Assembly (NCBI GenBank): GCA_016193315.1
Contig: JACPSJ010000001.1
Coordinates: 219,981-283,980 of the forward strand
DNA from: Candidatus Kerfeldbacteria bacterium
GTDB lineage: Bacteria; Patescibacteriota; Patescibacteriia; SBBC01; CAIJZX01
DNA: 64,000 nt
Reading direction: 5' to 3'
The notes below the pieces were generated by a model. It saw nothing but the letters and a program-made list of their open reading frames with translations, made no database searches and was not told where the DNA came from. This document shows positions 20,501 to 52,829 of the stretch, one piece after another; position 1 is the stretch's first letter, and the number at the start of each line of letters is the position of its first letter. The position numbers and the translations under genes were made by a program.

Positions 20501-21421
20501 AACACCATGCCGCAGTGGGCCGGATCGTGCTGGTATTACCTTCGGTTTACTGATCCGCACAACGATACAGCCATGGCCTCGCCTGAAGCGATGAAAGTCT
20601 GGTTGCCGGTAGATCTCTATGTCGGCGGCGCAGAACACGCCGTGCTCCACCTCCTGTACGCCCGTTTCTGGCACATGGTCCTCTATGATATAGGCGCAAT
20701 TCCGAAGGAGGTCGGCGGCGAGCCGTTCCTGAAATTGAAGAATCAAGGACTCATCCTCGGCCCGGACGGCGAAAAAATGTCCAAGTCGCGCGGGAATGTC
20801 ATCAACCCCGACGACATCGTGGCCAAGTACGGCGCCGATACCTTGCGGATGTACGAAATGTTCATGGGGCCGTTTGAAGATGCCAAACCATGGGATACAA
20901 ATGGGATTGTCGGGGTGCGGCGGTTTTTGGATAAGGTTTGGCGGGCGGCTGAACGTCTTGATAATTCGAAACCAAATGATCGGTGGCATAAGTATGCGAA
21001 TATGATTACTCGAGGCATTGAAGAGTTCAGGTTTAATACTTGTGTCAGCGATCTTATGAAGTGGGTGAATGAATGGGGCGCGAAGTCGGTGTCTAAGGAG
21101 GAAATTGAAGTGTTTTTGAAAGTCTTGTCACCATTCGCGCCGCATATGGCCGAAGAACTTTGGCAACAACTCGGACATGAAACAATGTTGGTTCAGGAAT
21201 CTTGGCCTGAGTTCGATCCAGATCTTCTGCGCGATGACACCGTTACAATTGCCGTACAGGTGAATGGAAAACATCGCGGGAATGTTATCGTTCCAACCGG
21301 CTCGAATGAGTCCGTCGTTCGCGAAGCGGCGCAAGCGGAAGCGAATGTGAAGAAGTATTTAACGAGCGAGCCTAAGAAAGTGATTTTTGTGAAGGATAGG
21401 CTGATTAATTTTGTAGTATAG
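17501..21421 (+). CDS. leuS: Leucyl-tRNA synthetase, 1306 aa, with three inserted accessory domains
   Basis: Class I motifs: HVGHPEGY (HIGH), TTRPDTLFGATY (editing domain), AVPAHDERDYEFA and KMSKS (EKMSKSRGNV). Insert 1 (about 18262-18900) resembles Ham1/ITPase: VDIVTTDDLG, LAIDEGLIID and PGSHVRRIPGFSG. Insert 2 (about 19264-19738) has the Nudix box GGIDGNEDIVKAAEREVAEETGY. Insert 3 (about 19948-20362) has the ASCH signature GKKTIETR (GxKxxExR). Confidence 0.9.
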   Translation: MSMAASKYDHQAIEKKWQQSWVEAGVFRPPLPTGASRHPPSTPAAAERGGRSTYVLDMFPYPSADGLHVGHPEGYTATDIVSRYLRMKGMTVLHPMGWDAFGLPTENAAIQKKIHPRIVTEQNVKNFKRQIMSLGFSYDWGRELNTTDPKYYKWTQWIFLQLFKKGLAYEAELPIWWCPKDKTGLANEEVVGGVCDRCGTKVERKMLRQWVLRITAYAERLLKGLDKLNWPENIKALQRNWIGKSQGAEVVFGIKTPSAKKPQLFISTKNPAKKKRYVHMFAPLGVDIVTTDDLGKSVTDVEVEEGEDIKENALKKAQIFHQATGLPTLAIDEGLIIDTFPANQQPGSHVRRIPGFSGRPTDEDMSTYYINEVVKHGGESLVHWEHAIAYVDEFGAKETQIKVTSSKIVATKSKKVKDGYPLDSLLIDLKTGKYRSELTPKEDEAAIQPLTDALTRFVSGALSKSSQVTVFTTRPDTLFGATYLVLSPEHPLVDVITTPEKKPAVEKYKKEVASKSDLERTALEKEKTGVFTGAYAINPVNNEKIPVWIADYVLMSYGTGAIMAVPAHDERDYEFAKKHELPIREVIIPYRYYKPNPPRPGKKTVERRNIHPIVKNPRTGKFLALRWTKHPWVTFPMGGIDGNEDIVKAAEREVAEETGYTDLKFERVLGGQVKAEYFAAHKNENRVAYTQAVVFSLRSEKRIPVPEHELKEHEVIWLDPKELNSQVMVHAELDVWLHRLARDEHAYTGEGALINSGQFDGLTSEDGRKKIVEWLKTQGKAKPKVNYKLRDWVFSRQRYWGEPIPLVHCENCANIVQSTNYTLHFSDREIWGDLLSGKKTIETRALNPEEPERYFGNIKPGHATPESYIKGIFKPTGEVAYFRVKSVRIYKSLRKLFVDKKVHAKIWPDRTFKTLEELRQSHDELTPGNAAKIDKNGLIAFEIKHVLPGIIPLKEDELPLELPDVERYEPTGIGESPLAAINEWVNVKCRVCGHPAKRETNTMPQWAGSCWYYLRFTDPHNDTAMASPEAMKVWLPVDLYVGGAEHAVLHLLYARFWHMVLYDIGAIPKEVGGEPFLKLKNQGLILGPDGEKMSKSRGNVINPDDIVAKYGADTLRMYEMFMGPFEDAKPWDTNGIVGVRRFLDKVWRAAERLDNSKPNDRWHKYANMITRGIEEFRFNTCVSDLMKWVNEWGAKSVSKEEIEVFLKVLSPFAPHMAEELWQQLGHETMLVQESWPEFDPDLLRDDTVTIAVQVNGKHRGNVIVPTGSNESVVREAAQAEANVKKYLTSEPKKVIFVKDRLINFVV

Positions 21422-21431: not shown

Positions 21432-22385
21432 TTGCAACCCCTTGATAGAATTGATTACACGGGCGATATAAAGACATTACTTCAGAAGGTTTGTGGCTCA
21501 TTTGACATTGGCTTACTGCAAAAATATTCGTTGATAGAGACGGGTTACGAAGACTGCAATATTATCCTTGAAACAAAAGAAGGTAAGTTTTTATGTAAGA
21601 TTTTTTCAAAGAAAAGAACGCCAGCAGATGTTCAAAGGTACTCTGAAATAATGAAAAAAGTAGTTGAGGCTGGAGTGCGCCACCCTGAACTTCAAAAAAC
21701 TGAAAATCATCAAGTACTTTTTAGCCACAAAGCCCCAGCGCTTGTTTTGATGCGGTTTATCGAGGGCGAGACATTCCTCGAACTGGATCGACCACCGAAC
21801 AACTCTGAACGCAAGGACGTATTACAACAGGCGGCTATCATCAACGCCATTGATTTCACCCCACCGTACTTATTTGACTCTTGGGCCATCCCACATATTC
21901 ATACAATGTTTGATAAGGTCAAGAAGTATATTCAACCGGCGGACCGGCTACTGGTAAAACAAGCCATGGATCGATACGATGCTATCCCGGTCGCAAGCTT
22001 GCCCAAATGTTTCGTGCATGGTGATTTTACCAAGGCGAACATTCTCAAAGGGAACGACGGAAAGATTTATATTCTTGATTTCTCGGTCGCGAATCGATAC
22101 CCACGAATTCAAGAGTTAGCGGTCATCGCCGCCAATCTCATGTTTGAGAAGGGCAAGGATGGCTCGTTACCATCGACGTGTACGTCCCTTGCGACTGAAT
22201 ACAATTCATTCTTGCCGCTCACAAAAGACGAAATTGAGCATCTTTACCCCTATGCACTGGCCGGAGTGGCGATGGAATTTATGGGTGCTCATCAGGAGAA
22301 GTTTATCAACGGCAATGACACGGAAGAGACAAACTACTGGATGCATCTAGGTCGATCAGGTCTCAAGCAAGCACTAGGAAAATGA
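21432..22385 (+). CDS. Aminoglycoside/choline-kinase (APH/ChoK) family phosphotransferase
   Basis: Catalytic loop VHGDFTKANIL and metal-binding YILDFSVAN; about 42% GC. Confidence 0.7.
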   Translation: MQPLDRIDYTGDIKTLLQKVCGSFDIGLLQKYSLIETGYEDCNIILETKEGKFLCKIFSKKRTPADVQRYSEIMKKVVEAGVRHPELQKTENHQVLFSHKAPALVLMRFIEGETFLELDRPPNNSERKDVLQQAAIINAIDFTPPYLFDSWAIPHIHTMFDKVKKYIQPADRLLVKQAMDRYDAIPVASLPKCFVHGDFTKANILKGNDGKIYILDFSVANRYPRIQELAVIAANLMFEKGKDGSLPSTCTSLATEYNSFLPLTKDEIEHLYPYALAGVAMEFMGAHQEKFINGNDTEETNYWMHLGRSGLKQALGK

Positions 22386-26079: not shown

Positions 26080-26814
26080 ATGTTCGAAAACGACAAGTCG
26101 AAAGTCCGCCGGCCGGGGGTGGTCGATCGGCTGATCGATTTCCTCTCCGGTTCCGCCCCCGCCGCCTCGCTGGAAGGGCACCGGGCGTATCGGCTAGCGT
26201 TTTTTTTCGGCCTCCTTGGCCTGGGGTTAGGAGCTTGGCTCATCCGGCAAACCATTACGAGTCTTGGTCAGCAGCCTGTACCGTCGGTGACCAATGAGCA
26301 AACGCCGGTGGCCAAGCTGGCCGAGCTCAAAACGAAAGATACGGATGAGGACGGGTTATCCGACTTCGATGAACTCTACGGTAGCAAGACCAGCCCCTAC
26401 CTCCGCGATTCCGACAGCGACGGCGTGGCCGACGGGGACGAGCTGAGGCAAGGAACTGATCCGAACTGTCCCTCCGGAAAAGCGTGTGCCGGCATTGTCG
26501 GCGGGGGTCCAACCACCGACAGCGGCGGCCAACTGACGCCCGAGTTTCTTCGCCAAGCCCTTCGCGATTCCGGGGTGGCGCAGAACACGCTCGAGGGCCT
26601 GTCCGACGATCAATTACTCGGTCTCTACCAACAGGTCGTTCAGGGGGCCACGAACACCAATGCCTTGGCCAGCATCACGCTCGATGATCTCAAGAAACTG
26701 TCAGGCGACGAAGTGCGCCAGCTGCTCCAGGACAGCGGTATCAGTAGCGAGGAGTTGAGTAAACTCGATGACGCGACATTAAAAAAAATCTTTCAGCAAG
26801 CACTCGAGCAGTGA
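26080..26814 (+). CDS. Membrane-anchored protein with TSP3-like acidic Ca-binding repeats; first gene of the giant locus
   Basis: TM anchor AYRLAFFFGLLGLGLGAWLI, then DTDEDGLSDFDELYG...DSDSDGVADGDELRQGTDPNC. Its stop overlaps the next start (GTGA). Confidence 0.45.
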   Translation: MFENDKSKVRRPGVVDRLIDFLSGSAPAASLEGHRAYRLAFFFGLLGLGLGAWLIRQTITSLGQQPVPSVTNEQTPVAKLAELKTKDTDEDGLSDFDELYGSKTSPYLRDSDSDGVADGDELRQGTDPNCPSGKACAGIVGGGPTTDSGGQLTPEFLRQALRDSGVAQNTLEGLSDDQLLGLYQQVVQGATNTNALASITLDDLKKLSGDEVRQLLQDSGISSEELSKLDDATLKKIFQQALEQ

Positions 26815-29800
26815 ACGTCCAACATCCTAACCCGCGCCGCTTTCCGACCAGCCGTTTCCTGGCCGCACTGCTCGCCTTCCTGACGGTGGTGGTGGTGTTC
26901 CGCACCTTCCAGCCACGGCCGGCGGAAGCCATTCTGGGCGTTGGCGACGTATCCGTCACGGTCGGAGATATTCCGCGGATTATCTTCCAATTCGTCGACG
27001 CCGCCCGCAAGCGGGTAGGCGCGATCCTGAAGGTCGCCGGCGACATTGCCTTCAAGAACACGCTGGAGATCTACAATGCCAAGATCGCGCAAGAGATCCT
27101 GACACAAATCAGTACCGCCGGCCCGGGCCAGAAACCGCTGTTCCTGACGAATCCGAAAACTTTTTTCCGTGACGTGGCCAATTCGGCGGCCGGAGATTTC
27201 ATTGACGAATTCACCCGGGGATTGACCGGCGAACGGGGGCCGGGGACGGCCTTCAGCTCCGCCCGCCAGCGCTTCATTATTTCACGGATCTTGCGGATCG
27301 GAGTCGGCAGCCCGGTTGAACAGTGCCGCGATAGTTGTCGGTCCACCTATAGCGTCGGGAACATCGACCTGGCGGGAGTCAAAGAATACTCCGATGAGGA
27401 ATTCCGGCAGCTGACCCAGGCCAGTTTTCGGAATGAGTTTGAATGGCGGATTGTTAATGTCCAGCGGCGGATTGACACGGTGACAAAACCAGCCATCGAC
27501 CATCAGGAGAGCGAAATCGTCTGCCGTGACGTGGCGTTACCAGCCGGACCGCCGCTGCCGGGACAAAACTACCTGCCGTGGCAAATTCAGCTCGGTGCCT
27601 GCGGCGAGGCGGTGCCGCCGCCGGAGTGTACAACGGCTCCGCAAGAATGTTTGAACCGCCAGCAGGAGGCCATCAATACGGAACGAGCCTCGGCCCAACA
27701 GCTGACCAACCAGTGTCTGCGGGATTGTCAGAGTGGATTGGCCGGTCTGGCCTCGGACGCCATCAACCAGGCTACAGCCACCGACATCTTCAACGCCACC
27801 ATCGAGTTAGATACTCGTCAAGCGACTCGCGCCATTACCCAAGAATTGTCGCGCGACAACAGCGATATTGGCAAGACGCTCTACTCTTTTGCTCAGTTGT
27901 ACGATACGGTTCAGGAACAAATCACGGCCGCCAAGACCGAGTTGGAAGCCGGGGCCAAGCCCCGCACGTCGAAAGTCAGCGAGGTGGTGCTGGTGCCGAA
28001 GGAAGCCAACCAACAAAGCCTCTTCACCGCCCTGGTTGGCGGCGACGACGCCAAGAAGATTTACACCGGCACCACGGCCGCCGATATTATCAAGGGCGTG
28101 GCCGCTTTCATTAATAGCCCGCTGTTCAAGGTGCTGACCTTGTATTTTAAGCACCAGTGCGGACTCAACACCGAAGCCTGCCGCGGGCCGTCGCAGCCGA
28201 CCTCGACACTCGGGCAGCTGCTCTTCGGCTCCGGCGGGCCAACCGGCCTGGCCGGGGCCCGGCTGCAATTCTCGACCGTTGGTCAAACCAAGTTCCTGAC
28301 CGGTGACCCCGGCCGGAACGAAGTCGACATCCCCAATGAGTTGGCGTCGGCCGGACTGATTGACGCCCAATTTCGGAACGCGATCGAGGACCGTCTGACG
28401 GTTCAAGAAGCACTGGACAAAGGGACGCTCGACCCGCGGAAGACTTTTGGGTTTGACCGTAACGGCGTTCAGCCGCGCGACGGCTATCCGTTCCGCGCTC
28501 TCCAGTACCTGCGAAAGTACCGCGTCGTCCCGGTCGGCTGGGAACTGGCCGCCAACTTCAGCTTACAATTCGATCCCCGCGACCTCAGTTTCGGTTTTCT
28601 GACTAAGCAGTTCAACCTCTGCGGCCAGGACGAGACTCACCGAGTCTGTACGAATGACCCCAATACGAGCTGTCAGGCGGACGATGACTGCAGCGGCAAC
28701 CGCTGCGGCGCCAGCCCGTACTGCGGCCTGGTTGATCCGAACTGGGTGCTCAAAGCGCCGCAGACGTACTGCCGCCGGCAAGGTGCCGGCGAGGAAATCA
28801 TCACCAAGGAATTCGTCTGCGATGAGAATAATATCCGGTCCATCGACGGAGTAGTCATCAACCCAGCATTCCAAGACGCCGGTCCGGACGGCATTCCCAC
28901 TACCCCTGACGATCAAGACAATAATCCACCCAACTGCGTCAAGGACGAACTCCGGAATGTCCACCCCGACCTCGGTCGTTGGGTCGTCAGCCGAAACACC
29001 AACACCTGCGCCGATACCCAGTCGTGCATCGCTGAGAACGACGACGGCACGTGTATTGCTTTCGGCTATTGCGTCCAGGAACGCCAGCAATTCCGCTTCG
29101 ACGGCACCCAGTGCGACGCCGAGTTCGCCAGCTGCACCACCTATACCGACGATCAAGGACAACCAGCGTCGTACCTGGCCAGCACGCTTGACTTCCGCAA
29201 CTGCAACGCCGACGTGGCCGGCTGCCAGTGGTATTGTCAAAACTACGACGCCGAAGCGCAACGCTGGACCTGCGGCGAGCCGCCCGGCAACGATGATCCC
29301 AGCGTCGTCAATGACATCATTCGTTTCACCAGCAACGTTCAAGCCTGCAACCAAAGCCAGGCCGGCTGTCGGCAATTTGTCCGGACCTCGAACGGATCGA
29401 ACCTGCTGCCCAACGGCGGCTTTGAAATTTTCTCCGGCGCCGAGCTCGACAGCGGGTTGGTAGCCAACTATGACAGTTGGAACAAAATTGGCGGGATCGG
29501 AACGTTTCCGGTTTCGGCCAGCGACCCGGATGTCACATCAAGTAACCGGGCGGCTATCAAGTTGACGGGGGGTGCGGGCGATGAACTTAGCGCGACCATC
29601 GATACCGGCTATGCTCTCTACGAGCGATCGTTTTCGGCCTCCATTCGGGCCCGGGCCGATTCAAGTTGCACCGCCAGCCTGGAAATGGACACCGACGTGG
29701 TCAGCTCGGGACAAGTGGTAACGATCGGCCCGAGCTGGGCGACTCAGGCGTTGTCAATCGTCATCCCAGAGGAGGAGAGGGTTCGTTCGTTTAGCAATGC

Positions 29801-32396
29801 GTTAACATTTACCATCAAGGTCGAAGGCTGCGGCGGCGCCAACCTAGTAGTCGACAGTGCCCAGCTGGAAGAAAGCGGCCTAACCCAATTCAAAGACTAC
29901 GGCCAGATCAACGCCGTCTACCTTAACGGGACGCGGCGCTCATGTACCACCGCCGATGTCGGCTGCGAATCGTACACGCCGCTGGCTGGCGGATCGGCCA
30001 TCACGGCTCAAGTCCGCAACAGCAACCGTTGTACTGAAGACAAGGTTGGTTGCGCGACCTACACGCTTGAACCGCTGCCTGGTCCCATTCCGCGACCGGG
30101 CGGATCGGTCAACATCATCGCGCCAAAAGGCCAGTCCTGCTCCGCCAGCAACGTTGGTTGCGAAGAGTATACTAATCTCGACGAAGTCGCCCGGGGCGGG
30201 GAAGGGAAAGAATACTATCAGTCGGTCAAACAGTGCGTCCGACCTAAATCCGGCGATCCTAGCCAGGCCACCTACTACACTTGGGTCGGCGATGCTGCTC
30301 GTGGCTTTATCCTGCGGAGCCACACGCTCCTGAAATCGAACATCGACGCCAGCCCCTGTACCCACCCCACGGTTGGCGCGCCGCGGGACGAACCGGTTTG
30401 CGACGATGCCGGCCGGGTCGATACCTCGGCTATCTGTAATGCCGATACCTTATCCAGCAATCCAGACTGCGCCGAATTCTACGATTCGTCTTTCAGCGTC
30501 TACTACCGGCTACGCTCGCTAACCGTTTCGGTAACCGACGATTGTCATCCGTATCGGAACAGCGTTGATCAGACCGACGCCGATCCAGGTAACGACGACA
30601 ACATCTACTTCCTGGCGCCCAAGGAAAACGTGGCTTGCCCGGCCACCGCCGCTGGTTGTCGAGCCTATACCGGCAATGCCGGACGGTCGACGAGAACTAT
30701 CTTCAGCGATACCTATGAGAGCGGCACGACCGCCAACTGGGTTGGCGGGCTGCCGGTGACCGAATCAACTAGCCTCGGCGGGCACTCGATGCATATTCCA
30801 TTGCCTGGAGGAGCGCCACGTGCGGCGGCCTACACCGACACCGACGTGCTGCCGGGGAAACTGGCCGACGGCAAGAACTACGTGGTCACCTTCTGGGCGG
30901 CGGCGGCCAACAGCGCCAGCCACCTGGCGACGATCAAAGCCAGTTTCGGCTCCGTTACCGGTAGGTCCTATAACGAAGATCAAATATTCGGCAGCGGGCA
31001 GCTTCGCTGGAATGAGAGTATTACCCCGGCTGGGCCGGAGTGGCAGCGCTACACCCTCGGTCCGCTGCAGCTGATTGGCAACACCGCTCGGCTCGGCATT
31101 ACGGTCACGGGTGGCGAGGCCTACGTTGATAACGTCACCTTGACTGAGATCAACGACAGTCTCTATCTCGTCAGCTCAACCGTGCCGCTCTGTGAGGCGG
31201 CTGATGTTGGTTGCGCCGCCTACCGCGATCGGGCCGGCGCCCGACACTATCTCAAATCCTTCACCCGTCTCTGCGCCGAGCAGGTCGTCGGTTGCGAAGC
31301 GATGGTTGACACCCAAAACAGCAGCACCCCGTTTGCCCAAGTGGTGAAGAACGAATTGACACCGGAGGACGCGGTGGTGACCGCGGTAAATAACCGCGCC
31401 GCCTACTGTCCGGCGGCCACTAAGGGTTGCCAGGCGCTCGGTAAACCGACCTACACGAACGACCGAGTCATCACCGGCTACCAGACGGTCTACCTCAAGA
31501 ACGACCCCGATCAGCATGCCCGCGACTTGTGTCTGAACGAAGAGTTATTCTGCCGGGCCTATACTACCGCCAGCGGATCGGCCGCCTTCTTCAAAGACCC
31601 AGCCCACCAAACCTGCGAGTTTCGATCGAACGCCAGCGATGTCGGCGGCCAGTGGTACGTCAGCGGCACCAACATCTTTTGCCCGACGATTACCCCGCCA
31701 TTGTCCGGTCGCCCGCTCGGCCCATCGTGCAGCCCCACCTGTGAGACTACCCCTGACTCGCTCCGGGCTGGCAAAGCCTGCGTTCGGGACGTCGACTGTC
31801 CGAAGGATGGCGGCGGGAATGTCCGCTGTCTAGGCGATGCCAGCAAAGTCGGCAAGATCAAAGATAGCGGCGGTAACTTCGTCTTCGGGCAGTGTGCCAG
31901 TGACACCGACTGCGATCCGGTCACTGGTAACAAATGCCGCTACTTGGCGGGCCTCTGTCCGGACGAACAAAACGGCTGCAATGAGTATCGCGATCCGACC
32001 GATCCGGCTGGCTGTCGGAGCGAGTGTCCGTTGATTCAGGTCGGTGGCAGCCCGCTCTACGTTGACGCCACGTGCGCGACCACCCGCTGCTCCTACCAAT
32101 GTCTCGGCGGGACGTGCGAAGGAGGTCCGGATGACGGGCTGGCTTGCGGTAGCGACGCGGAGTGTAATGTTCATTCCGGCAACTGTCAGGCCAGTGAACA
32201 GTGTGGCCCGGGCGGGCAGTGTCTCGGCAGCAACGGCCTGACCACCACCGGTATCCCCGGCTGCCGCCCCTACTATTACCTCCGGCAGACGGTGGAGACC
32301 AATGCCGTTGATTGCAACGGCCAAGTCAACCTGGAAACTCGCTGCCGACCATTCAATGACACGTCGAAACCGATCCTTAACGTGCGTGGTGGATAA
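26811..32396 (+). CDS. Giant secreted cysteine-rich repeat protein (1861 aa)
   Basis: N-terminal signal-anchor; recurring VGC[AE]xYT/GCxAY motif (ADVGCESYTPLAG, DKVGCATYTLEP, SNVGCEEYTNLDE, AAGCRAYTGNAG, ADVGCAAYRDRAG, VVGCEAMVDTQ, TKGCQALGKPTY); very Cys-rich C-terminal quarter. Confidence 0.7.
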   Translation: MNVQHPNPRRFPTSRFLAALLAFLTVVVVFRTFQPRPAEAILGVGDVSVTVGDIPRIIFQFVDAARKRVGAILKVAGDIAFKNTLEIYNAKIAQEILTQISTAGPGQKPLFLTNPKTFFRDVANSAAGDFIDEFTRGLTGERGPGTAFSSARQRFIISRILRIGVGSPVEQCRDSCRSTYSVGNIDLAGVKEYSDEEFRQLTQASFRNEFEWRIVNVQRRIDTVTKPAIDHQESEIVCRDVALPAGPPLPGQNYLPWQIQLGACGEAVPPPECTTAPQECLNRQQEAINTERASAQQLTNQCLRDCQSGLAGLASDAINQATATDIFNATIELDTRQATRAITQELSRDNSDIGKTLYSFAQLYDTVQEQITAAKTELEAGAKPRTSKVSEVVLVPKEANQQSLFTALVGGDDAKKIYTGTTAADIIKGVAAFINSPLFKVLTLYFKHQCGLNTEACRGPSQPTSTLGQLLFGSGGPTGLAGARLQFSTVGQTKFLTGDPGRNEVDIPNELASAGLIDAQFRNAIEDRLTVQEALDKGTLDPRKTFGFDRNGVQPRDGYPFRALQYLRKYRVVPVGWELAANFSLQFDPRDLSFGFLTKQFNLCGQDETHRVCTNDPNTSCQADDDCSGNRCGASPYCGLVDPNWVLKAPQTYCRRQGAGEEIITKEFVCDENNIRSIDGVVINPAFQDAGPDGIPTTPDDQDNNPPNCVKDELRNVHPDLGRWVVSRNTNTCADTQSCIAENDDGTCIAFGYCVQERQQFRFDGTQCDAEFASCTTYTDDQGQPASYLASTLDFRNCNADVAGCQWYCQNYDAEAQRWTCGEPPGNDDPSVVNDIIRFTSNVQACNQSQAGCRQFVRTSNGSNLLPNGGFEIFSGAELDSGLVANYDSWNKIGGIGTFPVSASDPDVTSSNRAAIKLTGGAGDELSATIDTGYALYERSFSASIRARADSSCTASLEMDTDVVSSGQVVTIGPSWATQALSIVIPEEERVRSFSNALTFTIKVEGCGGANLVVDSAQLEESGLTQFKDYGQINAVYLNGTRRSCTTADVGCESYTPLAGGSAITAQVRNSNRCTEDKVGCATYTLEPLPGPIPRPGGSVNIIAPKGQSCSASNVGCEEYTNLDEVARGGEGKEYYQSVKQCVRPKSGDPSQATYYTWVGDAARGFILRSHTLLKSNIDASPCTHPTVGAPRDEPVCDDAGRVDTSAICNADTLSSNPDCAEFYDSSFSVYYRLRSLTVSVTDDCHPYRNSVDQTDADPGNDDNIYFLAPKENVACPATAAGCRAYTGNAGRSTRTIFSDTYESGTTANWVGGLPVTESTSLGGHSMHIPLPGGAPRAAAYTDTDVLPGKLADGKNYVVTFWAAAANSASHLATIKASFGSVTGRSYNEDQIFGSGQLRWNESITPAGPEWQRYTLGPLQLIGNTARLGITVTGGEAYVDNVTLTEINDSLYLVSSTVPLCEAADVGCAAYRDRAGARHYLKSFTRLCAEQVVGCEAMVDTQNSSTPFAQVVKNELTPEDAVVTAVNNRAAYCPAATKGCQALGKPTYTNDRVITGYQTVYLKNDPDQHARDLCLNEELFCRAYTTASGSAAFFKDPAHQTCEFRSNASDVGGQWYVSGTNIFCPTITPPLSGRPLGPSCSPTCETTPDSLRAGKACVRDVDCPKDGGGNVRCLGDASKVGKIKDSGGNFVFGQCASDTDCDPVTGNKCRYLAGLCPDEQNGCNEYRDPTDPAGCRSECPLIQVGGSPLYVDATCATTRCSYQCLGGTCEGGPDDGLACGSDAECNVHSGNCQASEQCGPGGQCLGSNGLTTTGIPGCRPYYYLRQTVETNAVDCNGQVNLETRCRPFNDTSKPILNVRGG

Positions 32397-32398: not shown

Positions 32399-35300
32399 AT
32401 GTCATCTCATCGCCAATCAATCATTACTTCTGCCTCCACATGGTCACTCGTCCTCGGCCTGGCGACGTGGCTGGTGGCGGTTATGGCCCCGAAACCGGTC
32501 TCCGGCCAAGCGGCCTGCAGATCGAACCCGGATTGTGCCGCGACCGACCAAGCCTGCGTCTCTCGCTTCTGTGAGGACAATTTCAACTTGACCTTTTCTC
32601 CGACCACGGTCACGGCCAGCGGTTATTCTCAAGGCGTCGGATCGGATTCAATCGGCAACTTCATCCTTTACCATTGTCTCGGCGGTAAGTCCATTTGCAG
32701 TGCCCAACCGACGACGAACACTGCCTTTTGGACGAAACGGACCGGCGCCGACAGCTATTCAGTGACGCGTTCGAACCTCCGCCCGAGCCGAACTTACAGT
32801 ACGACCTACATTGGCGAAGTGAACACTGTGCGTACCGACTACGAAGCCCGACAGGTGACCACCCTGCCTGGCTACCAACCGACGGCCACGGTCAGCGGCA
32901 TTACCGAAAACAGCGCTACAGTTTCGTGGACGACCAGATTCCTTAGTGACAGCACGATTTGGTATGGGCTGACGGAACCAGACGTCAGCGTTGAACAAAC
33001 GGTTGTGTCCCCCGAAGTGTTCACTGACGTCGACGCCTTGTCGAGCGGTGAAGCCTGGGCCGTCACAAGTTCCGGTCGGGCATTCCGTCGCAACACCAGC
33101 GGGGCCTGGTCCGAGGCTCTCACCGGCGAAGGATATTTCGATTCGGTCAGCGTGTTTGATGCCCAACACATTTGGTTGGGCGCCAACGCCGGAAAGGTGC
33201 TCTACACGACGGATGGCGGCTCGAGCTGGGTCCGCACCACCTTTGGTGCCCCGTCCGACGATATTTTTGACCTCTACGCCCCGACCGCGACGACCGCCTG
33301 GGCAGTCAGCCGGAACAAGAAAATTAGCCTGCTCGATCAGGCGGTTGATCCCAATAATTGGCAATTGAAATACACCGCCACTTTTACCATGAGCGATATT
33401 TATTCATTGGACAACAAGGAAATCTGGGCGGTCGGTTCGGGCGGGAGAATAGTCACCAGTCGAGACGGCGGCGCGACGTGGTCGGAAACGTTGGTCACCA
33501 GTTCGGGCGCCTCGCTGGGCACGATCACCACCGTTGATGGTCGGACGCTGTGGGTGGGTGGCAGCACCGGCAGTATTTACCGGTCTAACGACAGTGGCGT
33601 GTCGTGGTCCCCGATCGCTACCGGGTCGGTTACGGCGATCGATGAACTAACCCCCATCAATACGCTCGCCATCTGGTTTACACAATCCGACCGTCTCGGA
33701 TATTACGACGCGACCGGCGCCCCCAGTTTCACCTTCTACACCCAAGCCCGGGCAGATCTCGGTAGCCCGCTGACTGAGTTGGGCCAGATTAACGGGGGGC
33801 AAATGTTCCTCGCCAGCGACAACGGGAGGCTAGGTTTGTTCCGACAAGCAGGCTCCGTCCATACGGATCTGCCGCTGGTCACCAACCACTCCCACACCTT
33901 TCCCCCCGGCAGTCTCGTCCCCGGGACAGACTACTTTTTCTCGGTCATCTCTAGCGACGGCAACATCAGTGCCGGGGCGTTCGGGACATTCCGGACACTC
34001 GAGCCCGATCCGGTTCCGCCGGACATTAGTTTTGCCCCCGACCCACCCGCCTATACGAACGTCAGCCCGCTGACCGTCAGCGGCACGGCGACCGATAATA
34101 TCAGCCTGCAGTCGGTCACGGTGACGAACAATGGCGCGCCCCAGGTAGTGACCACCGCTCCGCCGCTGCCCGGACCCGCTTCGACGTCCTGGTCTTCGAC
34201 TAAGGGGCTGAACGTCGGCAGCAATCCGTTCAAGGCCACGGCCACCGACAGTTCAGGCAACACCAAGACAGTCACGGCCACCGTGTTCTATGATCCCAAT
34301 CCACCGGTCGTGGCCATCACCAACCCGTCGGATGGGGCGGTCGTGGCGACCAGCACCATTACTATCGACGGCACGGCCAATGATGACGACTGGGTCGACA
34401 GTATGGAATACGTGCTCAACGGGGGCCCGCGGAAACCGCTGACCATTACGCCTGGGGCGGGCGTCAATTGGTCTGACAATGCCGGCCCGCTAACGCCGGG
34501 GGCGAACACGCTAACCGTGTACGCCAAAGATCGGGCCGGCAACGAAGGCTCACAGACGGTGAACTTCGAGTATCGCGAACCAACCTTCACCCTCAGCGCC
34601 GATCCGATTGCGGCGGCTGGTAATGCCGGCGACGTCTTCACCTTTTCCATCACCGCCACCTCGGTTGACGGCTTTGCCGATGGAGTCACCTTCTCAGTCA
34701 GCGGCGAGCCGGCCGGCAGCAGCGTCACTTTCGCGCCTAATCCGCTCTTGGTGCCGGCTGGCGGGTCGGACAGCTCGACTATGACCATGACCACCAACCC
34801 GGCTACGACGGGCACTTTCGACATCACCATCACTGGCACGAGCGGGCCGAAAACGGCTACCACTTCGGTGAGCCTCAAACTCAGAACTCCTCCCGACTTC
34901 ACGCTGTCAGCCATTCCGGTTATCCAAAACATCGTCGCCGGAAATCCAACCAGTTACCAGATCACGGCCAATTCGAACGTGTCTTTCAATGACACCGTCA
35001 CCTTCAGCGTCAGCGGCTTACCGGCTCTGGCCACGAGTGGGTTCAGTCCGGGCTCACTGACGTTGCCGCCGAGCAGCAGCGGTACCACCGACCTGACGGT
35101 GACGACACAACCGGCGACGCCGGACGGCAGCTACACACTGACGATCACCGGCACCAGTCCCGGCCTAACCCGGACGGTCAATGTAACGCTGAATATCAGC
35201 GCGCCGCCCGACTTTAGCCTGACTGTAGTGCCGGCCGGGCAGACTGTAACCGCTGGCGGCTCGACCTCCTACAACGGCACCGTCAAAGCGCTCAACGGTT

Positions 35301-36499
35301 TTGCCGAGCCGGTCAACGTCACCGCCACCATTAATCCGCCGACGCCAGAAGTAACCTTGAGCATTGCGCCCAATCGTTTTACGCCGACGCCCGGCGGCAC
35401 TAGCTTTATCGCCAATGTCCAAACTACGGGCGCGACACCCAGCGATACCTACGCCATTACGGTCAAGGTCGAGAATGACGCCGCCACGATCAGTCACACC
35501 GTTGACGTCAGCCTCCAGGTTGACGCCGACGTCACGCCGCCGATCATTACCAATATTTCGGCCACGCCGAATTGGGACAGCGTCCGGGTCACGTGGGAGA
35601 CGAACGAACTGGCCGACTCGGAACTGGCCATCTACGCCGATGCCGGCCTTGGCACCTTAGTCGGCATCGTCAGCGATGCTGGCTACTGCCTGAGTGGCTG
35701 TCACGACCTCTTCTACACGCCCCTCAACCCCACCACCACCTACTACTTTACCGTTACCTCGGCCGATCAAGCCGTACCGACCCCGAATTCGACTACCCGC
35801 ACCAAGGAAGATGACGGCGTCACACCCTTACAGTTTACCACCCTCGACGAACCAGATAGCATGCCGCCCAGCGTCGTCATCGACGAGCCGGCTGACGGCG
35901 ATATCCTTAGTGGTTCAGCCACCATTCGCGGCACGGCTACTGACAACAAGAATGTTACCCAAGTCCGAGTCACCATCGCGCCAGTGGGTGATCCGGACAG
36001 CTTTGTCCTCGATCAGAACTTACTCTGTGCCGGGGCCAGTTGCTCGTTCAACACGATCTGGAATACCACGGCGGTGCCAAACGACAGCTACCTCATCACG
36101 GCGGTCGCGCGGGACACGGCCGGCAATTTGTCGACGCCCACCAGCATTTCCGTGGCGGTGGAGAATGACTTTACCCCACCGTTGCTCACCTGCGACGTCA
36201 CCCCCACACCGACACCAACCGGTGGCGAGGTTGACTGCGGCGGCGGGCAGTGTTGGGAAGCCGTCATCACCTGGTGCACCGATGACCCCAGCACCAGCGA
36301 AGTTGATTTCGGTACCAGCGTTTCTTGTGGCGGCGGCGTGTGCACGTACCCGCTTGGTCAGCGTTATGACGATCTGGCGCCAGCTGACCCCTCTCCCATT
36401 TACACCAATCACCGCGTCACCCTCCGACGACTCGACGCCAACCAACTCTACCACTACCGCATCACCAGCTGTAATGAAGGGGGATTCTGCACACACTAA
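32399..36499 (+). CDS. Giant secreted protein (1366 aa) with a BNR/Asp-box beta-propeller, tandem Ig-like repeats and an FN3-like domain
   Basis: Signal peptide; Asp-box motifs TTDGGSSWV, SRDGGATWS and SNDSGVSWS; roughly 95-aa tandem repeats beginning PDF[TS]L[ST] with conserved NGF..V.FS.SG.P; an FN3-like segment TPNWDSVRVTWETNELADSELAIYAD. Confidence 0.7.
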   Translation: MSSHRQSIITSASTWSLVLGLATWLVAVMAPKPVSGQAACRSNPDCAATDQACVSRFCEDNFNLTFSPTTVTASGYSQGVGSDSIGNFILYHCLGGKSICSAQPTTNTAFWTKRTGADSYSVTRSNLRPSRTYSTTYIGEVNTVRTDYEARQVTTLPGYQPTATVSGITENSATVSWTTRFLSDSTIWYGLTEPDVSVEQTVVSPEVFTDVDALSSGEAWAVTSSGRAFRRNTSGAWSEALTGEGYFDSVSVFDAQHIWLGANAGKVLYTTDGGSSWVRTTFGAPSDDIFDLYAPTATTAWAVSRNKKISLLDQAVDPNNWQLKYTATFTMSDIYSLDNKEIWAVGSGGRIVTSRDGGATWSETLVTSSGASLGTITTVDGRTLWVGGSTGSIYRSNDSGVSWSPIATGSVTAIDELTPINTLAIWFTQSDRLGYYDATGAPSFTFYTQARADLGSPLTELGQINGGQMFLASDNGRLGLFRQAGSVHTDLPLVTNHSHTFPPGSLVPGTDYFFSVISSDGNISAGAFGTFRTLEPDPVPPDISFAPDPPAYTNVSPLTVSGTATDNISLQSVTVTNNGAPQVVTTAPPLPGPASTSWSSTKGLNVGSNPFKATATDSSGNTKTVTATVFYDPNPPVVAITNPSDGAVVATSTITIDGTANDDDWVDSMEYVLNGGPRKPLTITPGAGVNWSDNAGPLTPGANTLTVYAKDRAGNEGSQTVNFEYREPTFTLSADPIAAAGNAGDVFTFSITATSVDGFADGVTFSVSGEPAGSSVTFAPNPLLVPAGGSDSSTMTMTTNPATTGTFDITITGTSGPKTATTSVSLKLRTPPDFTLSAIPVIQNIVAGNPTSYQITANSNVSFNDTVTFSVSGLPALATSGFSPGSLTLPPSSSGTTDLTVTTQPATPDGSYTLTITGTSPGLTRTVNVTLNISAPPDFSLTVVPAGQTVTAGGSTSYNGTVKALNGFAEPVNVTATINPPTPEVTLSIAPNRFTPTPGGTSFIANVQTTGATPSDTYAITVKVENDAATISHTVDVSLQVDADVTPPIITNISATPNWDSVRVTWETNELADSELAIYADAGLGTLVGIVSDAGYCLSGCHDLFYTPLNPTTTYYFTVTSADQAVPTPNSTTRTKEDDGVTPLQFTTLDEPDSMPPSVVIDEPADGDILSGSATIRGTATDNKNVTQVRVTIAPVGDPDSFVLDQNLLCAGASCSFNTIWNTTAVPNDSYLITAVARDTAGNLSTPTSISVAVENDFTPPLLTCDVTPTPTPTGGEVDCGGGQCWEAVITWCTDDPSTSEVDFGTSVSCGGGVCTYPLGQRYDDLAPADPSPIYTNHRVTLRRLDANQLYHYRITSCNEGGFCTH

Positions 36500-36500: not shown

Positions 36501-39500
36501 ATGCTAACCCGACCGGCCATCTTCAAACACTCAACTCGGCCATGGCCCTTACTGCTGGCCATGTTGGTGTTGGTGGCAAGTCTGGTGGGGGAGCGCGCGG
36601 CGGTTGAAGCCCAGGGCGAACGACCGCCGCGCGTGATCTCGGTCACAACCGCGGTCACGGCTAACTCCGCGACCATCACCTTCACCACCGATGTCGAAGC
36701 CGAGGCGCGGATCCGTTATGGCCAGTCGGCGGCCTATGACCTGGAGTTCCCGATCGGTGGCACGTTTGTGGCCGCCGTAGCCGGCGAGTTCACCAAACAG
36801 CTGTCCCTGGCCGGGCTGAATCCGGGCACCACCTATCATTTCACCATTGAAACCAGGCGGGTTGGCAGCACCGACACCGCCTCCACCCCGGATCGAACAT
36901 TCACCACCGCCTCGGGCGCCGGCGGCGGGGCGGCGTTGACGATCAATGATATCGGTATGGATTGTATTGGCGCCAATTGTCGCCTAAGTTTCTCCACCAG
37001 CGTCGACGCCAATGTCCAGGTGCGGTGGGACACTTCGCCGCACGGATCTTTCTCGGACTATGTCCTTGGCGCGGCCGGGGAACCAGCCGGATTCTACTCC
37101 GCCGCACTCCGTTCTCTCGACTTGACCGGTCTGGCGCTCGGGACCACCTACCACTACATGATGCAAGGCACTGACCGCGGCGGCAGCACCTTTCTGACCG
37201 GCGACCTAACATTCACCACTGGCGCCGACGGCGATGACCGGACCTTCAGCACCGGCGCCTGTGCCGACGGTACGCCGATCGGCGGCTGTTCACGCGATGG
37301 CGGCTACTGCGAACCTGGCGGCGTGCTGGTCTACCGCTGCGACTCGATCTGCGGTTTCACTTGCCCGGTCGACCAAACGTGCAATGACAGCGGTCTATGT
37401 CTCGTTGACCCGCCGTTGACCGGTTCGCCCAACCAGTGCAACAACTCAAACTGCTACACCGAGAGCGGGGTGTTCAAAGCCATCGCCCCAGCCGGCTGTT
37501 TCCGCAGTTGGCCCCGCTGTAACGCCAACACCATCCTGAAAGTTCGGAAGGATCGGTCCTGCAACCTGTGGTTGAGCTGTGAAACGAGCCTCCAAACGCA
37601 ACCGAGCTCGTCCGCCCCGGCGGAAAACCTGTGCCTGTCCCTGGCCGCCTGCAACAGCCTGGGTCCGAACGGGCAGTGCAACCGCTTCCTGCCGTCGGGG
37701 CAATGCTCGAACAACCCGCTTCGTTTCTGTTCGACGGATGCTGATTGCGAGGCCGGCGGCAGCTGCAACGCCGTGCCGGCTGACGAACCGACGCGCTCGT
37801 TGCAAGACCTTCAATTTAGCACCCCAGACCAGATCTCCCAGATCGCCAATCTGTCCGGCAACGTCATCGCCGGCCTGGACTGGGATCAAGTGGCCGACGT
37901 GCCGGTTATTCGGGGCAACCTCCCGTGGCAGCTGATGCGGCAAATCGGCGGTGTGACGCAGGCCAAGAACGGCGACCTCGAATACCAGCCGCCGAACCCC
38001 GACCCTTGGATCTCCGCGCCGCCAGGCGAAGCACCGGTCGCCAAACTGGTCGTCGAATTCGAAGACCAGGACACCAGCCCCAACCATGTCCTCAAAGTCG
38101 ATCCGGCCAAAGATCCGGACACCGACAAGTATCTTCCGTTCTCCGGCGCGGCGACCGGCGAGTTCTCCGCCGCCCCGGGCGAATACTACTTTGCCGAAGC
38201 GCGGGTCCGGGCCGATGCCGGCAGCCCGCAACTCCGTTTCCAATTCGGCTATGAAGGGTATACGAAGTTTGTCGGCAACGATGACCCATTCGTCGCCTCC
38301 GCCGCCTGGCAGCGGGTGACCATCGGCCCGGTCAAGGGCTTGCGCGGGCAAACTCGCTTCGCCGTCGTTTGCCGCGATGAAGAAAAATGCGGCCCGTTCT
38401 GGATCGACGATGTCCAGATCAAGCCGGTGCTGCAGGTCAATACCACTCCCAGCTACGTCACCCCGACGTGCCGACTTTACCCCAAAGAGGATTCCCCCGC
38501 CTGTGACTATGTCGACAAGGATGGGGTACAGTATAGCGGTTGGCAAGGCTACTGCTTGGAACATGATTCGGTCACCGGCACCTGCCTGTCATGGTGGCCG
38601 GCGGACCTAATCAAGGGTCAAAGCAACATTTTCGGCTCCGAGACGCAGGCCGGTTATGACGGGCGATCCCCATTGTACCTCTGTCTCGAGGCGGCGGGCA
38701 ATAATCGCGGCGTCGTCGGGGAAGCGGGCACCCAGCCGTACGTCGTGGGCAAGGCGAATTACAACGTCGGCCGCGATTTTGAAGCTTTTTGTGGCGGGAC
38801 TCGCGGAGTTCAGTATACCATCGGTCAATGCTGTACCACTTGCATCGATGGCGCGCAGCGTGGCCTTGATCGTATCACCAAGGTGGACGCCAGCGGGCCC
38901 GAACTCAATCTTCATGAGGATGAGATTACCAAGGTCGTTTGGGTGCCGCAGCCGGTGCCAGGGGAAGACGTCAGGCTCAATCCAGGATTTGAAATCATCA
39001 ACAACGATAAGTTCAGATTTTCGTCGCGGGCGCTGCCGGCCGCCGAGGCGGACTACTGGGCTCACCATTACCGAGTTTGGCGCGATACCCCGCCCTACGA
39101 TTACCCTGACGAAGTGCAGGAGTCGGCGAATTATATCATCTGGCGGTGGGAGACCGATCCGGCTGAATGTCGAACGCACACTAACGGCAACTGCGTGACG
39201 GCCAGACTGTTCTTTGACAAGAACACGCGCGAGTTTAAGAAATACCATTTGATCGTGGACGATCAGACGGATGGCGGGGATGAGGAAATGCTGTATCGCG
39301 TTTACTTCTACACCCGGGAATCATGCCGGGCCGTGGCCCAAGTCGTCGACCCGGATGGCAACAGCGAGGTTTTCGCCGAGCGCGTCAAATCGAATTTCAT
39401 CGTGCCCGACCTCAACTACGGCTTGATCTCGGACCTGACGCCATTCGGCGGCGTCTTGCCCCCCAGCGAAGCCGGCGCCGAACCGGAAACATGGCCTCTC

Positions 39501-40433
39501 CTGCCGGTCGAATTCGTCAATACTACCGCCTTCGAATTCGGTCAAGCCCGCGGCGGCAGCCCCTACGCCTGCAACGGGAATTGCCAGGCGGTGATCTGCT
39601 CGGCGAACCACGGATTCAGTTGTCTCAAACCCGACGGCACCGCGGACGCCGCCGCGGTCAATCGGTGCCAAACGGTGCTCGATGTTGACGGTGACGGCCT
39701 GCCCGACGGGCAGTGCACTGGCGTCATCCCGCCGATCGCCAGTGCCCGCGGCCGGCAATCAGTCGGCGCCCATGACCCGACCGGAGTTGATCCGGACCTT
39801 GATCGAAACTACTTCGCCCAAGAGCGTATCCGCCGGCTGTTTGTTCGATCGTTGGGCGTTTGGCGATGGGAGAATAATAAGTATGTCCTTCAGCCCGGGC
39901 CAGGCTGGGAGCCGCCGGACGAACTATGTCCGGTCGATCCGGATGTACCCAGCCGGCGACGACGGCCAAGCTACCCCACTGATTACTGTGCCGTGCCGCC
40001 CGAAGCTGACAACGCGCAGTTCCTGAGCGGCACCAGCAAGCTGGCGACCATCACCGGCGGCAGCGGGGTGGTCGGCATTAAGTTCAACACCGCCGCCGAC
40101 GCCGAACAGGTACCGCTCAAGCAGATCATCATCGACTGGGGCGACACGCAAGATACGATTGCCTTCCCCTTCGCGCCGCGTAACGATCCGTCGAAGCCAC
40201 ACATCGTCAGCCACGTCTACATCGCCAACCCGGGCAATCCGGCCTGCCGTGGCGGCGCGGGCGGTCGCGTCTCCTGCGAATTCCGCATCAAGATCCAGGT
40301 TGAAGACAACTGGGGGTGGTGCAACGATGCCACGGCTGGCACCAAGTGCCACCGGACCATTGACGCGCGCACCGGCCGCTTCGACTCGAGCACCTGGTAC
40401 GATACGGACTTAACGGTGCGGGTCGAATCATGA
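36501..40433 (+). CDS. Giant secreted protein (1311 aa) with N-terminal FN3-like domains and a Cys-rich body
   Basis: Signal peptide MLTRPAIFKHSTRPWPLLLAMLVLVASLVG. Two FN3/PAP-N-like domains (GTTYHFTIETRR and GTTYHYMMQGTDRGG), then many Cys. The ORF-track 5-prime extension to 35694 overlaps the previous gene and was rejected. Confidence 0.65.
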   Translation: MLTRPAIFKHSTRPWPLLLAMLVLVASLVGERAAVEAQGERPPRVISVTTAVTANSATITFTTDVEAEARIRYGQSAAYDLEFPIGGTFVAAVAGEFTKQLSLAGLNPGTTYHFTIETRRVGSTDTASTPDRTFTTASGAGGGAALTINDIGMDCIGANCRLSFSTSVDANVQVRWDTSPHGSFSDYVLGAAGEPAGFYSAALRSLDLTGLALGTTYHYMMQGTDRGGSTFLTGDLTFTTGADGDDRTFSTGACADGTPIGGCSRDGGYCEPGGVLVYRCDSICGFTCPVDQTCNDSGLCLVDPPLTGSPNQCNNSNCYTESGVFKAIAPAGCFRSWPRCNANTILKVRKDRSCNLWLSCETSLQTQPSSSAPAENLCLSLAACNSLGPNGQCNRFLPSGQCSNNPLRFCSTDADCEAGGSCNAVPADEPTRSLQDLQFSTPDQISQIANLSGNVIAGLDWDQVADVPVIRGNLPWQLMRQIGGVTQAKNGDLEYQPPNPDPWISAPPGEAPVAKLVVEFEDQDTSPNHVLKVDPAKDPDTDKYLPFSGAATGEFSAAPGEYYFAEARVRADAGSPQLRFQFGYEGYTKFVGNDDPFVASAAWQRVTIGPVKGLRGQTRFAVVCRDEEKCGPFWIDDVQIKPVLQVNTTPSYVTPTCRLYPKEDSPACDYVDKDGVQYSGWQGYCLEHDSVTGTCLSWWPADLIKGQSNIFGSETQAGYDGRSPLYLCLEAAGNNRGVVGEAGTQPYVVGKANYNVGRDFEAFCGGTRGVQYTIGQCCTTCIDGAQRGLDRITKVDASGPELNLHEDEITKVVWVPQPVPGEDVRLNPGFEIINNDKFRFSSRALPAAEADYWAHHYRVWRDTPPYDYPDEVQESANYIIWRWETDPAECRTHTNGNCVTARLFFDKNTREFKKYHLIVDDQTDGGDEEMLYRVYFYTRESCRAVAQVVDPDGNSEVFAERVKSNFIVPDLNYGLISDLTPFGGVLPPSEAGAEPETWPLLPVEFVNTTAFEFGQARGGSPYACNGNCQAVICSANHGFSCLKPDGTADAAAVNRCQTVLDVDGDGLPDGQCTGVIPPIASARGRQSVGAHDPTGVDPDLDRNYFAQERIRRLFVRSLGVWRWENNKYVLQPGPGWEPPDELCPVDPDVPSRRRRPSYPTDYCAVPPEADNAQFLSGTSKLATITGGSGVVGIKFNTAADAEQVPLKQIIIDWGDTQDTIAFPFAPRNDPSKPHIVSHVYIANPGNPACRGGAGGRVSCEFRIKIQVEDNWGWCNDATAGTKCHRTIDARTGRFDSSTWYDTDLTVRVES

Positions 40434-52827: not shown

Positions 52828-52829
52828 CG

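Follow-up and report, generated by a model that had tools for sequence, protein, structure and literature searches.

A cysteine-rich giant protein with predicted two-cysteine hairpin modules, encoded at the head of a Patescibacteria type IV secretion gene cluster

We analysed a window of 64,000 nucleotides from the genome of a Candidatus Kerfeldbacteria bacterium (assembly GCA_016193315.1, contig JACPSJ010000001.1, positions 219,981 to 283,980) and focused on one gene encoding a giant, cysteine-rich protein that an earlier note, made from the sequence alone, had singled out for its recurring cysteine motif. The analysis suggests that the motif belongs to a two-cysteine hairpin module repeated in three clusters along a secreted protein, and that the gene stands, judging from conserved gene order, as a regular member at the head of a type IV secretion system (T4SS) operon of Patescibacteria. 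This genomic context, overlooked by the earlier note, is the main lead to the function of the protein, for which we propose a role as host-contact adhesin or stalk.

Modular architecture of the giant protein

The gene product is 100% identical to HYY50_01360, a 'hypothetical protein' of a Candidatus Kerfeldbacteria metagenome-assembled genome (MAG) at NCBI, and re-translation returned the coordinates, strand and length of 1861 amino acids (aa) that the earlier note had given. The features of the open reading frame (ORF) are listed below, with residue numbers referring to the protein; AF2 stands for AlphaFold2 and CBM for carbohydrate-binding module.

26811–32396, +, giant protein ORF: GTG start, 1861 aa, 81 cysteines (4.4%)
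26811–26930, +, Sec signal peptide, residues 1–40: basic N-region, hydrophobic core at 16–34, AEA motif
26931–29000, +, N-terminal domain, residues 41–730: mostly helical (alignments, AF2)
29007–29390, +, first cysteine-hairpin cluster, residues 733–860: two Cx5C hairpins (733/739, 748/754) and Cx6C modules 768/775, 798/805 and 846/853 (invariant cysteines, recurrent DSSP signature)
29421–29900, +, CBM4-like β-jelly-roll domain 1, residues ~871–1030 (PDB profile match, AF2, Foldseek)
29925–30221, +, second cysteine-hairpin cluster, residues 1039–1137: tandem Cx6C modules 1045/1052, 1074/1081 and 1110/1117, the last holding the most conserved stretch, VGCEEYTNLD (module listing, alignments, cross-detection)
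30222–30689, +, middle β-rich region: cysteines 1142, 1183/1197, 1209, 1220 and 1245, and one more Cx6C module, 1276/1283 (AF2 DSSP, paired cysteines)
30690–31175, +, CBM22/CBM4_9-like β-jelly-roll domain 2, residues ~1294–1455: cysteine-free (PDB profile, Foldseek)
31176–31610, +, third cysteine-hairpin cluster, residues 1456–1600: Cx6C modules 1461/1468, 1488/1495, 1533/1540 and 1574/1581 (cysteines 99–100% conserved)
31611–32396, +, cysteine-dense C-terminal region, residues 1601–1861: CxxDxDC-type mini-knots and the last Cx6C module, 1716/1723, NGCNEYRDP (cysteine density, sequence)

The recurring motif is real. Compared with 5000 shuffles of the protein, the strict pattern of the earlier note, [VILMFA]GC[AE].Y[TR], matches four times (shuffle mean 0.002), and the looser GC..[YFW] nine times (mean 0.58, maximum 4). 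In full, the motif reads C-x6-C-x2-[YF]-[TR], with a glycine mostly preceding the second cysteine: C.{6}C..[YFW] occurs ten times against a mean of 0.28, a count reached in 0 of 5000 shuffles, and C.{5}GC..[YFW] eight times against 0.12 expected when the cysteine positions are kept fixed. Adjacent Cx6C pairs number 16, with 2.7 expected. On these shuffle statistics a chance origin of the motif was rejected.

Twelve modules stand in register between residues 768 and 1723, with first cysteines at 768/798/846, at 1045/1074/1110 plus 1276, and at 1461/1488/1533/1574 plus 1716. The earlier note had placed them throughout the protein, 30–60 aa apart. We found instead three clusters with irregular spacing, 27–48 aa inside clusters and 142–199 aa over the intervening domains, and none of the twelve in residues 1–730, where Cx6C pairs appear singly, at 273 and 450. 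Its description of a cysteine-dense C-terminus was accurate, since residues 1601–1861 contain 26 cysteines (10%). No tandem repeat was detected at the DNA level in the gene, which points to ancient modules that have since diverged.

Similarity among the modules was assessed with single-position hidden Markov models (HMMs) built from 23 orthologues and controlled with 500 shuffled proteins. The HMM of position 1045 matches residues 1108–1122 (15.9 bits) and 1461–1475 (13.2 bits; shuffle maximum 3.8), and that of position 1461 matches 766, 1039, 1109 and 1275, in register, at 10.5–13.4 bits. Overall, cross-detection among module positions gave 10–16 bits, the best of the 500 shuffled proteins giving 3.8–5.4 bits. 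From 973 instances in 94 homologues, the consensus reads C-[SP]-A-x-x-[VA]-G(79%)-C-[EQR]-[AE]-[YF](80%)-[TI].

An AF2 model of residues 700–1861, computed with the family alignment, reached a mean predicted local distance difference test (pLDDT) of 83.9 and a predicted template-modelling score (pTM) of 0.71. It is all-β, with small strand/cysteine-loop/strand hairpins set among the jelly rolls and other β domains. At 11 of the 12 modules the DSSP string is the same, namely strand, turn, Cys, two residues, 3-10 turn, Gly-Cys, strand. The predicted module thus spans about 25–30 aa and comprises a strand, a turn, the first cysteine, a six-residue loop with one 3-10 turn, Gly-Cys, and a second strand (xxY[TR]). 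Because the sequence statistics, profile cross-detection and predicted structure concur, the Cx6C modules are supported as genuine repeats. In the model, each is a small hairpin unit and not the coil of a solenoid: the β-solenoid put forward by the earlier note does not fit hairpin units that are split by two jelly rolls, irregularly spaced (15–199 aa) and devoid of a DNA-level tandem repeat.

The same note could not place the repeat, and neither could we. A scan of the whole protein with hmmscan against Pfam and NCBIfam returned no family above threshold, including the known bacterial adhesin and surface repeat families (Big, cadherin-like, FIVAR, RTX, SdrD-B and the Myxococcus Cys-rich repeat). 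Scanning 24 three-module segments against Pfam gave scattered noise (E ≥ 3.5e-4, in one to five members), and a three-module profile had no match at E ≤ 10 among PDB sequences. In a large protein search, the same profile retrieved just five short fragments, probably of the same family.

A Sec signal peptide with an AxA-type site was found in 37 of 37 proteins (the giant and 36 homologues), which indicates an extracellular location. The C-terminus, ending ...RPFNDTSKPILNVRGG, has neither an LPXTG motif nor a transmembrane (TM) segment. Nearly every cysteine of the giant is invariant in 23 orthologues, and those of the Cx6C modules are 99–100% conserved in 94 non-redundant homologues, down to ~24% identity, a few positions looking misaligned. 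This near-invariance makes cysteine covariation uninformative for the Cx6C pairs, so that only the variable pairs can be read in this way. Among the 94 homologues, variable cysteines are gained or lost as pairs with correlations of r 0.95–1.0, values that shared phylogeny inflates: 450/457 (r 1.0), 809/821 (0.97) and 1183/1197 (0.95), and, at r 0.98, 670/709, 1723/1739, 172/280 and 176/302. Such paired gain and loss is the behaviour expected of disulfide partners.

Two traits are expected of disulfide-bonded modules: the protein should reach an oxidising compartment, and its cysteines should be conserved and strictly paired. Both were found, and from them we infer that the two cysteines of each module probably form a local disulfide. 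Of the disulfide-stabilised surface modules imagined by the earlier note, the surface location and the cysteine pairing are consistent with our data, the disulfides are made probable by that pairing, and the solenoid fold falls away.

Could the paired cysteines bind zinc or iron instead, as metal-stabilised and possibly redox-sensitive knuckles of cells living in anoxic habitats? Paired conservation, gain and loss would be equally expected of metal ligands, the window shows no gene for a Dsb- or VKOR-type oxidoreductase, and many of the source samples are, by record title, groundwater or sediment MAGs. Such habitats are often anoxic. However, each module has two cysteines closing a six-residue loop inside one hairpin, a tetrahedral site would need two modules while single ones exist (1276, 1716), and the protein is exported by Sec. 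The weak noise of the Pfam scans also came from disulfide-knot families (Dickkopf, EB), with no zinc finger save one TRAF at E 1.7. We therefore regard metal binding as very improbable.

The two jelly rolls were recognised through the family profile and the predicted fold. Against the PDB, the profile of the first matched the CBM4 of laminarinase 16A (1gui, E 4.3e-5) and entries of the xylanase CBM4-2 (E 5e-4 to 8e-3), and the domain is all-β in the AF2 model with pLDDT >90. The second matched the CBM22 of Xyn10C (4xun/4xup, E ~2e-3; 1.7e-3 for 4xun). Foldseek searches with the C-terminal model returned 4xup with probability 1.0 and further CBM-bearing proteins; the many matches all have TM-scores of ~0.1 because only the jelly rolls align. 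Precomputed annotations assign Pfam CBM_4_9 (PF02018) to 13 of 37 homologues, and jelly rolls of the expected ~150 aa with profile matches place the two domains close to CBM_4_9 and CBM22. Aromatic residues W890, W976, W1310, Y1357 and W1411 are invariant in the alignments.

The N-terminal domain is of another kind. Its model is mostly helical with a pLDDT of 67.6, confident at residues 170–310 and 510–650 alone; Foldseek found nothing in the PDB (best E 0.9), and Pfam and NCBIfam gave no match. It carries the most family-specific invariant motifs of the alignments (GPGQKPLF, GDFID, PVGWELAA, LVDPNWVLKAP). One may ask whether the protein is a secreted enzyme degrading polysaccharides or cell walls, with a novel catalytic N-terminal domain, targeting by the CBM-like domains and a VirB1-like 'hole puncher' role. 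The CBM4 and CBM22 domains matched in the PDB are indeed appended to glycoside hydrolases (laminarinase, xylanases), invariant polar or acidic residues (Q107, E578, D642) occur in the N-terminal domain, and most Patescibacteria classes seldom have a VirB1 homologue close to virB4 (PMC12102498). Yet this domain is mostly helical and partly of low confidence, with no hydrolase fold and no family match, and the T4SS cluster of the window already has a fusion of a pilin with an M23 peptidase, while a LysM-M23 gene lies upstream. We consider an enzymatic role unlikely.

Taken together, the models and alignments depict a Sec-exported extracellular protein predicted to consist of a helical N-terminal domain of ~700 aa, an all-β region of ~1100 aa and a tail rich in cysteine knots.

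Gene neighbourhood and the split form

The genes that accompany the giant are listed below, all on the forward strand.

26080–26814, +, small membrane-anchored protein, 244 aa: TM helix 37–55, thrombospondin-type-3 (TSP3) repeats, helical repeat tail
32399–36499, +, secreted 1366-aa protein (d1): signal peptide, Pfam BNR/Sortilin-like repeats, Big_7, Glucodextran_B, fn3-like
36501–40433, +, secreted 1310-aa cysteine-rich protein (d2): 49 cysteines, N-terminal Pfam fn3, blastp
40430–43333, +, VirB6/TrbL-like T4SS channel protein (d3): polytopic, 8 TM (TM prediction, Pfam TrbL)
44400–46094, +, cytoplasmic proline-rich 564-aa protein (d5): tblastn
46141–46626, +, PrgI (VirB3-like) membrane protein: Pfam PrgI, E 3.6e-11, 43.9 bits against a cut-off of 27
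46637–49355, +, TrsD-like protein resembling the VirB4 N-terminus (46637–47365), then VirB4 ATPase (47430–49355)
50491–51573, +, T4SS pilin-domain protein with a C-terminal extension of ~230 aa, 20 cysteines (Pfam)
51583–52827, +, PD40 β-propeller protein between the two pilin genes (Pfam)
52830–53756, +, T4SS pilin-domain protein fused to Peptidase_M23 (Pfam)

The order in the window is hence small TSP3 gene, giant, d1, d2, VirB6-like gene, two unassigned genes, PrgI, TrsD-like, VirB4 and pilins. The junctions are tight: the stop of the small TSP3 gene overlaps the GTG of the giant by 4 nt (GTGA), gaps of 2 nt and 1 nt separate the giant from d1 and d1 from d2, and the stop of d2 overlaps the start of the VirB6-like gene. 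Upstream, an untranslated gap of 168 nt lies between KsgA and the small TSP3 gene. The small protein carries thrombospondin-type-3 calcium-binding repeats (Pfam TSP3_bac, E 1.2e-4). TrbL was matched in 3 of 15 members of the VirB6-like family (best E 5.8e-5), and the TrsD-like and VirB4 genes were assigned from Pfam TraC_F_IV, P-loop_TraG (E 1e-26), AAA_10 and TraC_N/TrsD-like. The two pilin proteins match T4SS_pilin PF18895 at E 2e-8 and 9e-11. By tblastn, many genomes have d5 in the interval from the VirB6-like gene to PrgI/TrsD/VirB4; the protein has no family assignment and displays conserved N- and C-terminal blocks, e.g. GPVEEL...FRRL...IKAWR.

The stretch 40430–53756 thus combines VirB4, TrsD, PrgI/VirB3, VirB6 and nearby PF18895 pilins, the composition that marks a T4SS cluster of the Patescibacteria clade. 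This repertoire matches the one reported by Quinonero-Coronel et al. 2025 (PMC12102498), and the arrangement is alike in the TrsD+VirB4 pairing typical of Patescibacteria (PMC12102498).

The order small TM/TSP3 gene, giant, VirB6-like, PrgI, TrsD, VirB4 and pilins recurs in relatives. Neighbours were counted only in loci with enough flanking sequence. Of 65 related genome loci, 64 have the small TSP3 gene directly upstream of the giant and in the same orientation, and a VirB6-like gene lies downstream in 40 of 45. Eighty metagenome loci were additionally fetched using the VirB6-like TM domain as bait. Among these VirB6-anchored loci, the giant was found upstream in 27 of 29 and VirB4 downstream in 27 of 34, and giant, VirB6-like gene and VirB4 were collinear in 15 loci. 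The giant is thus a consistent and collinear, if not universal, companion of the T4SS cluster in other genomes. By this gene order, its gene is a conserved member of the Patescibacteria T4SS operon, at the head of it.

The conserved block continues upstream of the operon, into LeuRS, Sua5, an MFS transporter and KsgA. This leaves room for a different reading, in which the giant is a general structural protein of the cell envelope, akin to an S-layer, without any tie to the T4SS, and its adjacency reflects frozen gene order. In addition to the wide synteny block, the apparent presence of one conserved gene per locus in hundreds of species and the lack of a recognisable T4SS domain in the giant speak in its favour. 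It is at odds with the tight or overlapping junctions that lead to the VirB6-like gene, compared with the 168-nt gap between KsgA and the small TSP3 gene, and with the 81 nearly invariant cysteines of the giant, known S-layer proteins being typically Cys-poor. The two CBM-like domains likewise suggest ligand binding over lattice formation. An S-layer-like role is, in our view, improbable.

The downstream neighbours offer a separate link to the giant. Most family members measure 2400–3600 aa, and residues ~322–1280 of d2 are homologous to the C-terminal ~1000 aa of these long members (blastp, E down to 1e-87). Long homologues match the giant up to about residue 1730 and then continue with d2-like sequence, while the stretch of the giant beyond ~1735 belongs to the short, split form alone. 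Hence d2 corresponds to the other half of one ancestral protein, which the homologies suggest was split, in the Kerfeld-like clade, into the giant and d2, with d1 inserted between the halves; d1 was seen in this position in that clade only, in 20 of 82 related loci. The long forms might instead have arisen by fusion. Whether by fission or fusion, the giant and d2 appear from these alignments to be parts of one functional unit. Fission would tie the downstream, cysteine-rich d2 independently to the function of the giant. A Cx6C module common to d1 and d2 was considered and rejected, as only CxxDxDC-type mini-motifs are in common.

We also considered that the giant could be cargo of a mobile element. 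This was rejected: the locus is vertically conserved beside housekeeping genes, and the only candidate element gene is a distant tyrosine recombinase (Phage_integrase, 3218–4207, reverse strand). The ORF of the latter overlaps the start of that of a patatin-like phospholipase (4064–5152, forward strand), and a patatin gene also occurs between LeuRS and Sua5 in one related locus (L001).

Other genes of the window deserve mention. The leucyl-tRNA synthetase (LeuRS; 17501–21421, 1306 aa) contains inserted Ham1 (ITPase-like, 265–444) and NUDIX (615–726) domains. Its syntenic counterparts differ in their inserts, with NUDIX only (L004, 950 aa), an α/β-hydrolase (L002, 1046 aa) or none (L005, 765 aa), so this essential enzyme looks like a hotspot of domain insertion. 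Next to it, an APH-family kinase gene (21432–22385) has a GC content of 0.43–0.47, compared with ~0.58 around it. In 80 of 82 related loci this gene is lacking between LeuRS and Sua5, so that it probably inserted recently into an otherwise conserved junction.

Distribution of the family

The family was searched with phmmer, using residues 40–860 against 1.84 billion representative sequences, and hits were grouped at 50% identity. This gave 1105 clusters at E ≤ 1e-3, 1015 at ≤ 1e-10 and 351 at ≤ 1e-30, nearly all with lengths of 1600–3600 aa and with the matching region at the N-terminus. At least 592 GTDB species genomes encode a relative. By record title, the best 77 loci include ones from Kerfeld-, Falkow- and Uhrbacteria, Parcubacteria, one Microgenomatus and the 'Patescibacteria group'.

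Many carriers that are TPA_asm MAGs (L006, L007, L014, L015 and others) are titled 'uncultured Gammaproteobacteria', with a handful more under Planctomycetota, Pirellulales, Bdellovibrionales or Tangfeifania; the remaining titled carriers all belong to Patescibacteria lineages. Wrong taxonomic labels or contaminated bins most likely explain the non-Patescibacteria titles. Setting such apparent mislabels aside, the family seems, by record title, to be known so far from Patescibacteria alone, and it is conserved over much of this phylum.

In source databases, the members are annotated as 'hypothetical', 'carbohydrate binding domain-containing' or 'dockerin'. Our literature search on cysteine-rich giant proteins of Patescibacteria found no description of the family, and a preprint on a 'novel pilus' deals with Pam pilins, which are unrelated to the giant. 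The family is thus unannotated and its two-cysteine hairpin module previously undescribed.

Proposed role and likeness to known systems

In the pCF10 plasmid, PrgA, PrgB and PrgC are encoded at the 5' end of the T4SS operon, upstream of the homologues of VirB6 (PrgH), VirB3 (PrgI) and VirB4 (PrgJ). The operon position of the giant corresponds to the same layout, and like these proteins of the MPF-FATA class it is a Sec-exported surface protein. Patescibacteria T4SS are also phylogenetically nearest to that class (PMC12102498). PrgA/B/C provide the cell–cell contact needed by the secretion channel, and by analogy of operon position the giant may be likened to them in role. It differs in having no sequence or domain similarity, no LPXTG sortase signal, a size several times larger and a high cysteine content, and it bears CBM-like jelly rolls in place of the PrgB adhesin and Ig-like domains. 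With no LPXTG anchor and no Pfam match, the giant does not belong to the PrgB/aggregation substance family.

Three further resemblances concern structure. The two jelly rolls, of ~160 aa each, match CBM4/CBM22 (PF02018; 1gui, 4xun/4xup) by profile and fold, but in the giant they come without a recognisable glycoside hydrolase and are embedded among cysteine-hairpin modules. Phage CBM-cenC tail and host-specificity proteins (BFVD) are likewise large, all-β receptor binders with CBM jelly rolls (Foldseek E 1e-12 to 1e-8); the TM-scores are ~0.1, however, and tail-fibre or baseplate domains are missing from the giant, which is chromosomal, vertically conserved and outside any phage context. The top Foldseek match in the PDB is the Elapor1 ectodomain (9vqm, E 1.7e-8), which is extracellular and cysteine-rich like the giant and whose repeats we take to be of the furin-like/GCC2_GCC3 type. 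The TM-score is only 0.09–0.12, the giant has no Pfam match to those repeat families and no sequence relationship, and its two-cysteine signature with a six-residue loop is not described for Elapor1-type repeats. This resemblance is probably convergent.

Combining architecture and gene neighbourhood, we propose that the giant, stapled by disulfides, serves the patescibacterial T4SS as an adhesin or stalk for host contact, a reading to which we assign a probability of about 0.5. In this model, the intramodule disulfide would staple each hairpin and so yield a stiff extracellular rod resistant to proteases and shear, from which the two CBM-like domains would reach out and bind glycans or wall polymers of the host. 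The giant would be co-produced with, and probably docked by, the small calcium-binding membrane protein encoded upstream and the VirB6-like channel protein encoded downstream, and would provide the T4SS with its contact to the host, as adhesin or stalk, in a role like that of PrgA/B/C in Gram-positive conjugation. The three alternative explanations (metal-binding cysteines, a secreted enzyme and an S-layer-like protein) are less consistent with the operon junctions, the cysteine content, the missing hydrolase-like fold and the two-cysteines-per-module geometry.

Several points weigh against this proposal, which we infer solely from architecture and gene neighbourhood. The synteny takes in housekeeping genes unrelated to secretion (LeuRS–Sua5–MFS–KsgA), so that conserved order is weaker evidence of linkage in these reduced genomes, and VirB4 was missing in 7 of the 34 VirB6-anchored loci, within 10 kb downstream of the matched segment. 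In the giant itself, CBM_4_9 remains sub-threshold (E 0.24, 12.2 bits against a cut-off of 25.9), and no cell-wall or membrane anchor is recognisable besides the signal peptide. No Dsb-like gene was seen within the window. Lastly, the only patescibacterial T4SS cluster studied genetically, that of S. epibionticum (SEML1_0006–0019, in Tn-seq tables), holds no gene of 2–3 kaa, which makes the giant a lineage-restricted component and not a universal part of the machine.

A wider version of the proposal, which we rate as rather unlikely, would have the giant, d2 and the small calcium-binding membrane protein together form the missing extracellular part of the T4SS, namely a rigid, disulfide-stapled stalk spanning the envelope of the symbiont, recognising glycans of the host surface through its CBM-like domains and positioning, or forming part of, the conduit to the host.

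Patescibacteria account for a large share of bacterial diversity and apparently live attached to other microbes. An unannotated family at the head of their T4SS operon, combining a probably cysteine-stapled scaffold with two domains of a glycan-binding type, displays the traits one would expect of an element that contacts the host. The T4SS of these bacteria are widespread, chromosomal and devoid of relaxases (PMC12102498), and in a Saccharibacterium, S. epibionticum, the system is essential for epibiotic growth (PMC10633639, PMC12857230). The survey of Patescibacteria T4SS reported that 'no adhesins, such as PrgB, were detected' (PMC12102498), and the family described here is thus a candidate for the adhesin that went undetected in that systematic survey. 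The signature C-x5-G-C-x2-[YF] can be used to annotate the new module. If the wider version of our proposal is true, these proteins would represent a new structural solution for cell-to-cell contact by a monoderm T4SS, built on a two-cysteine hairpin module.

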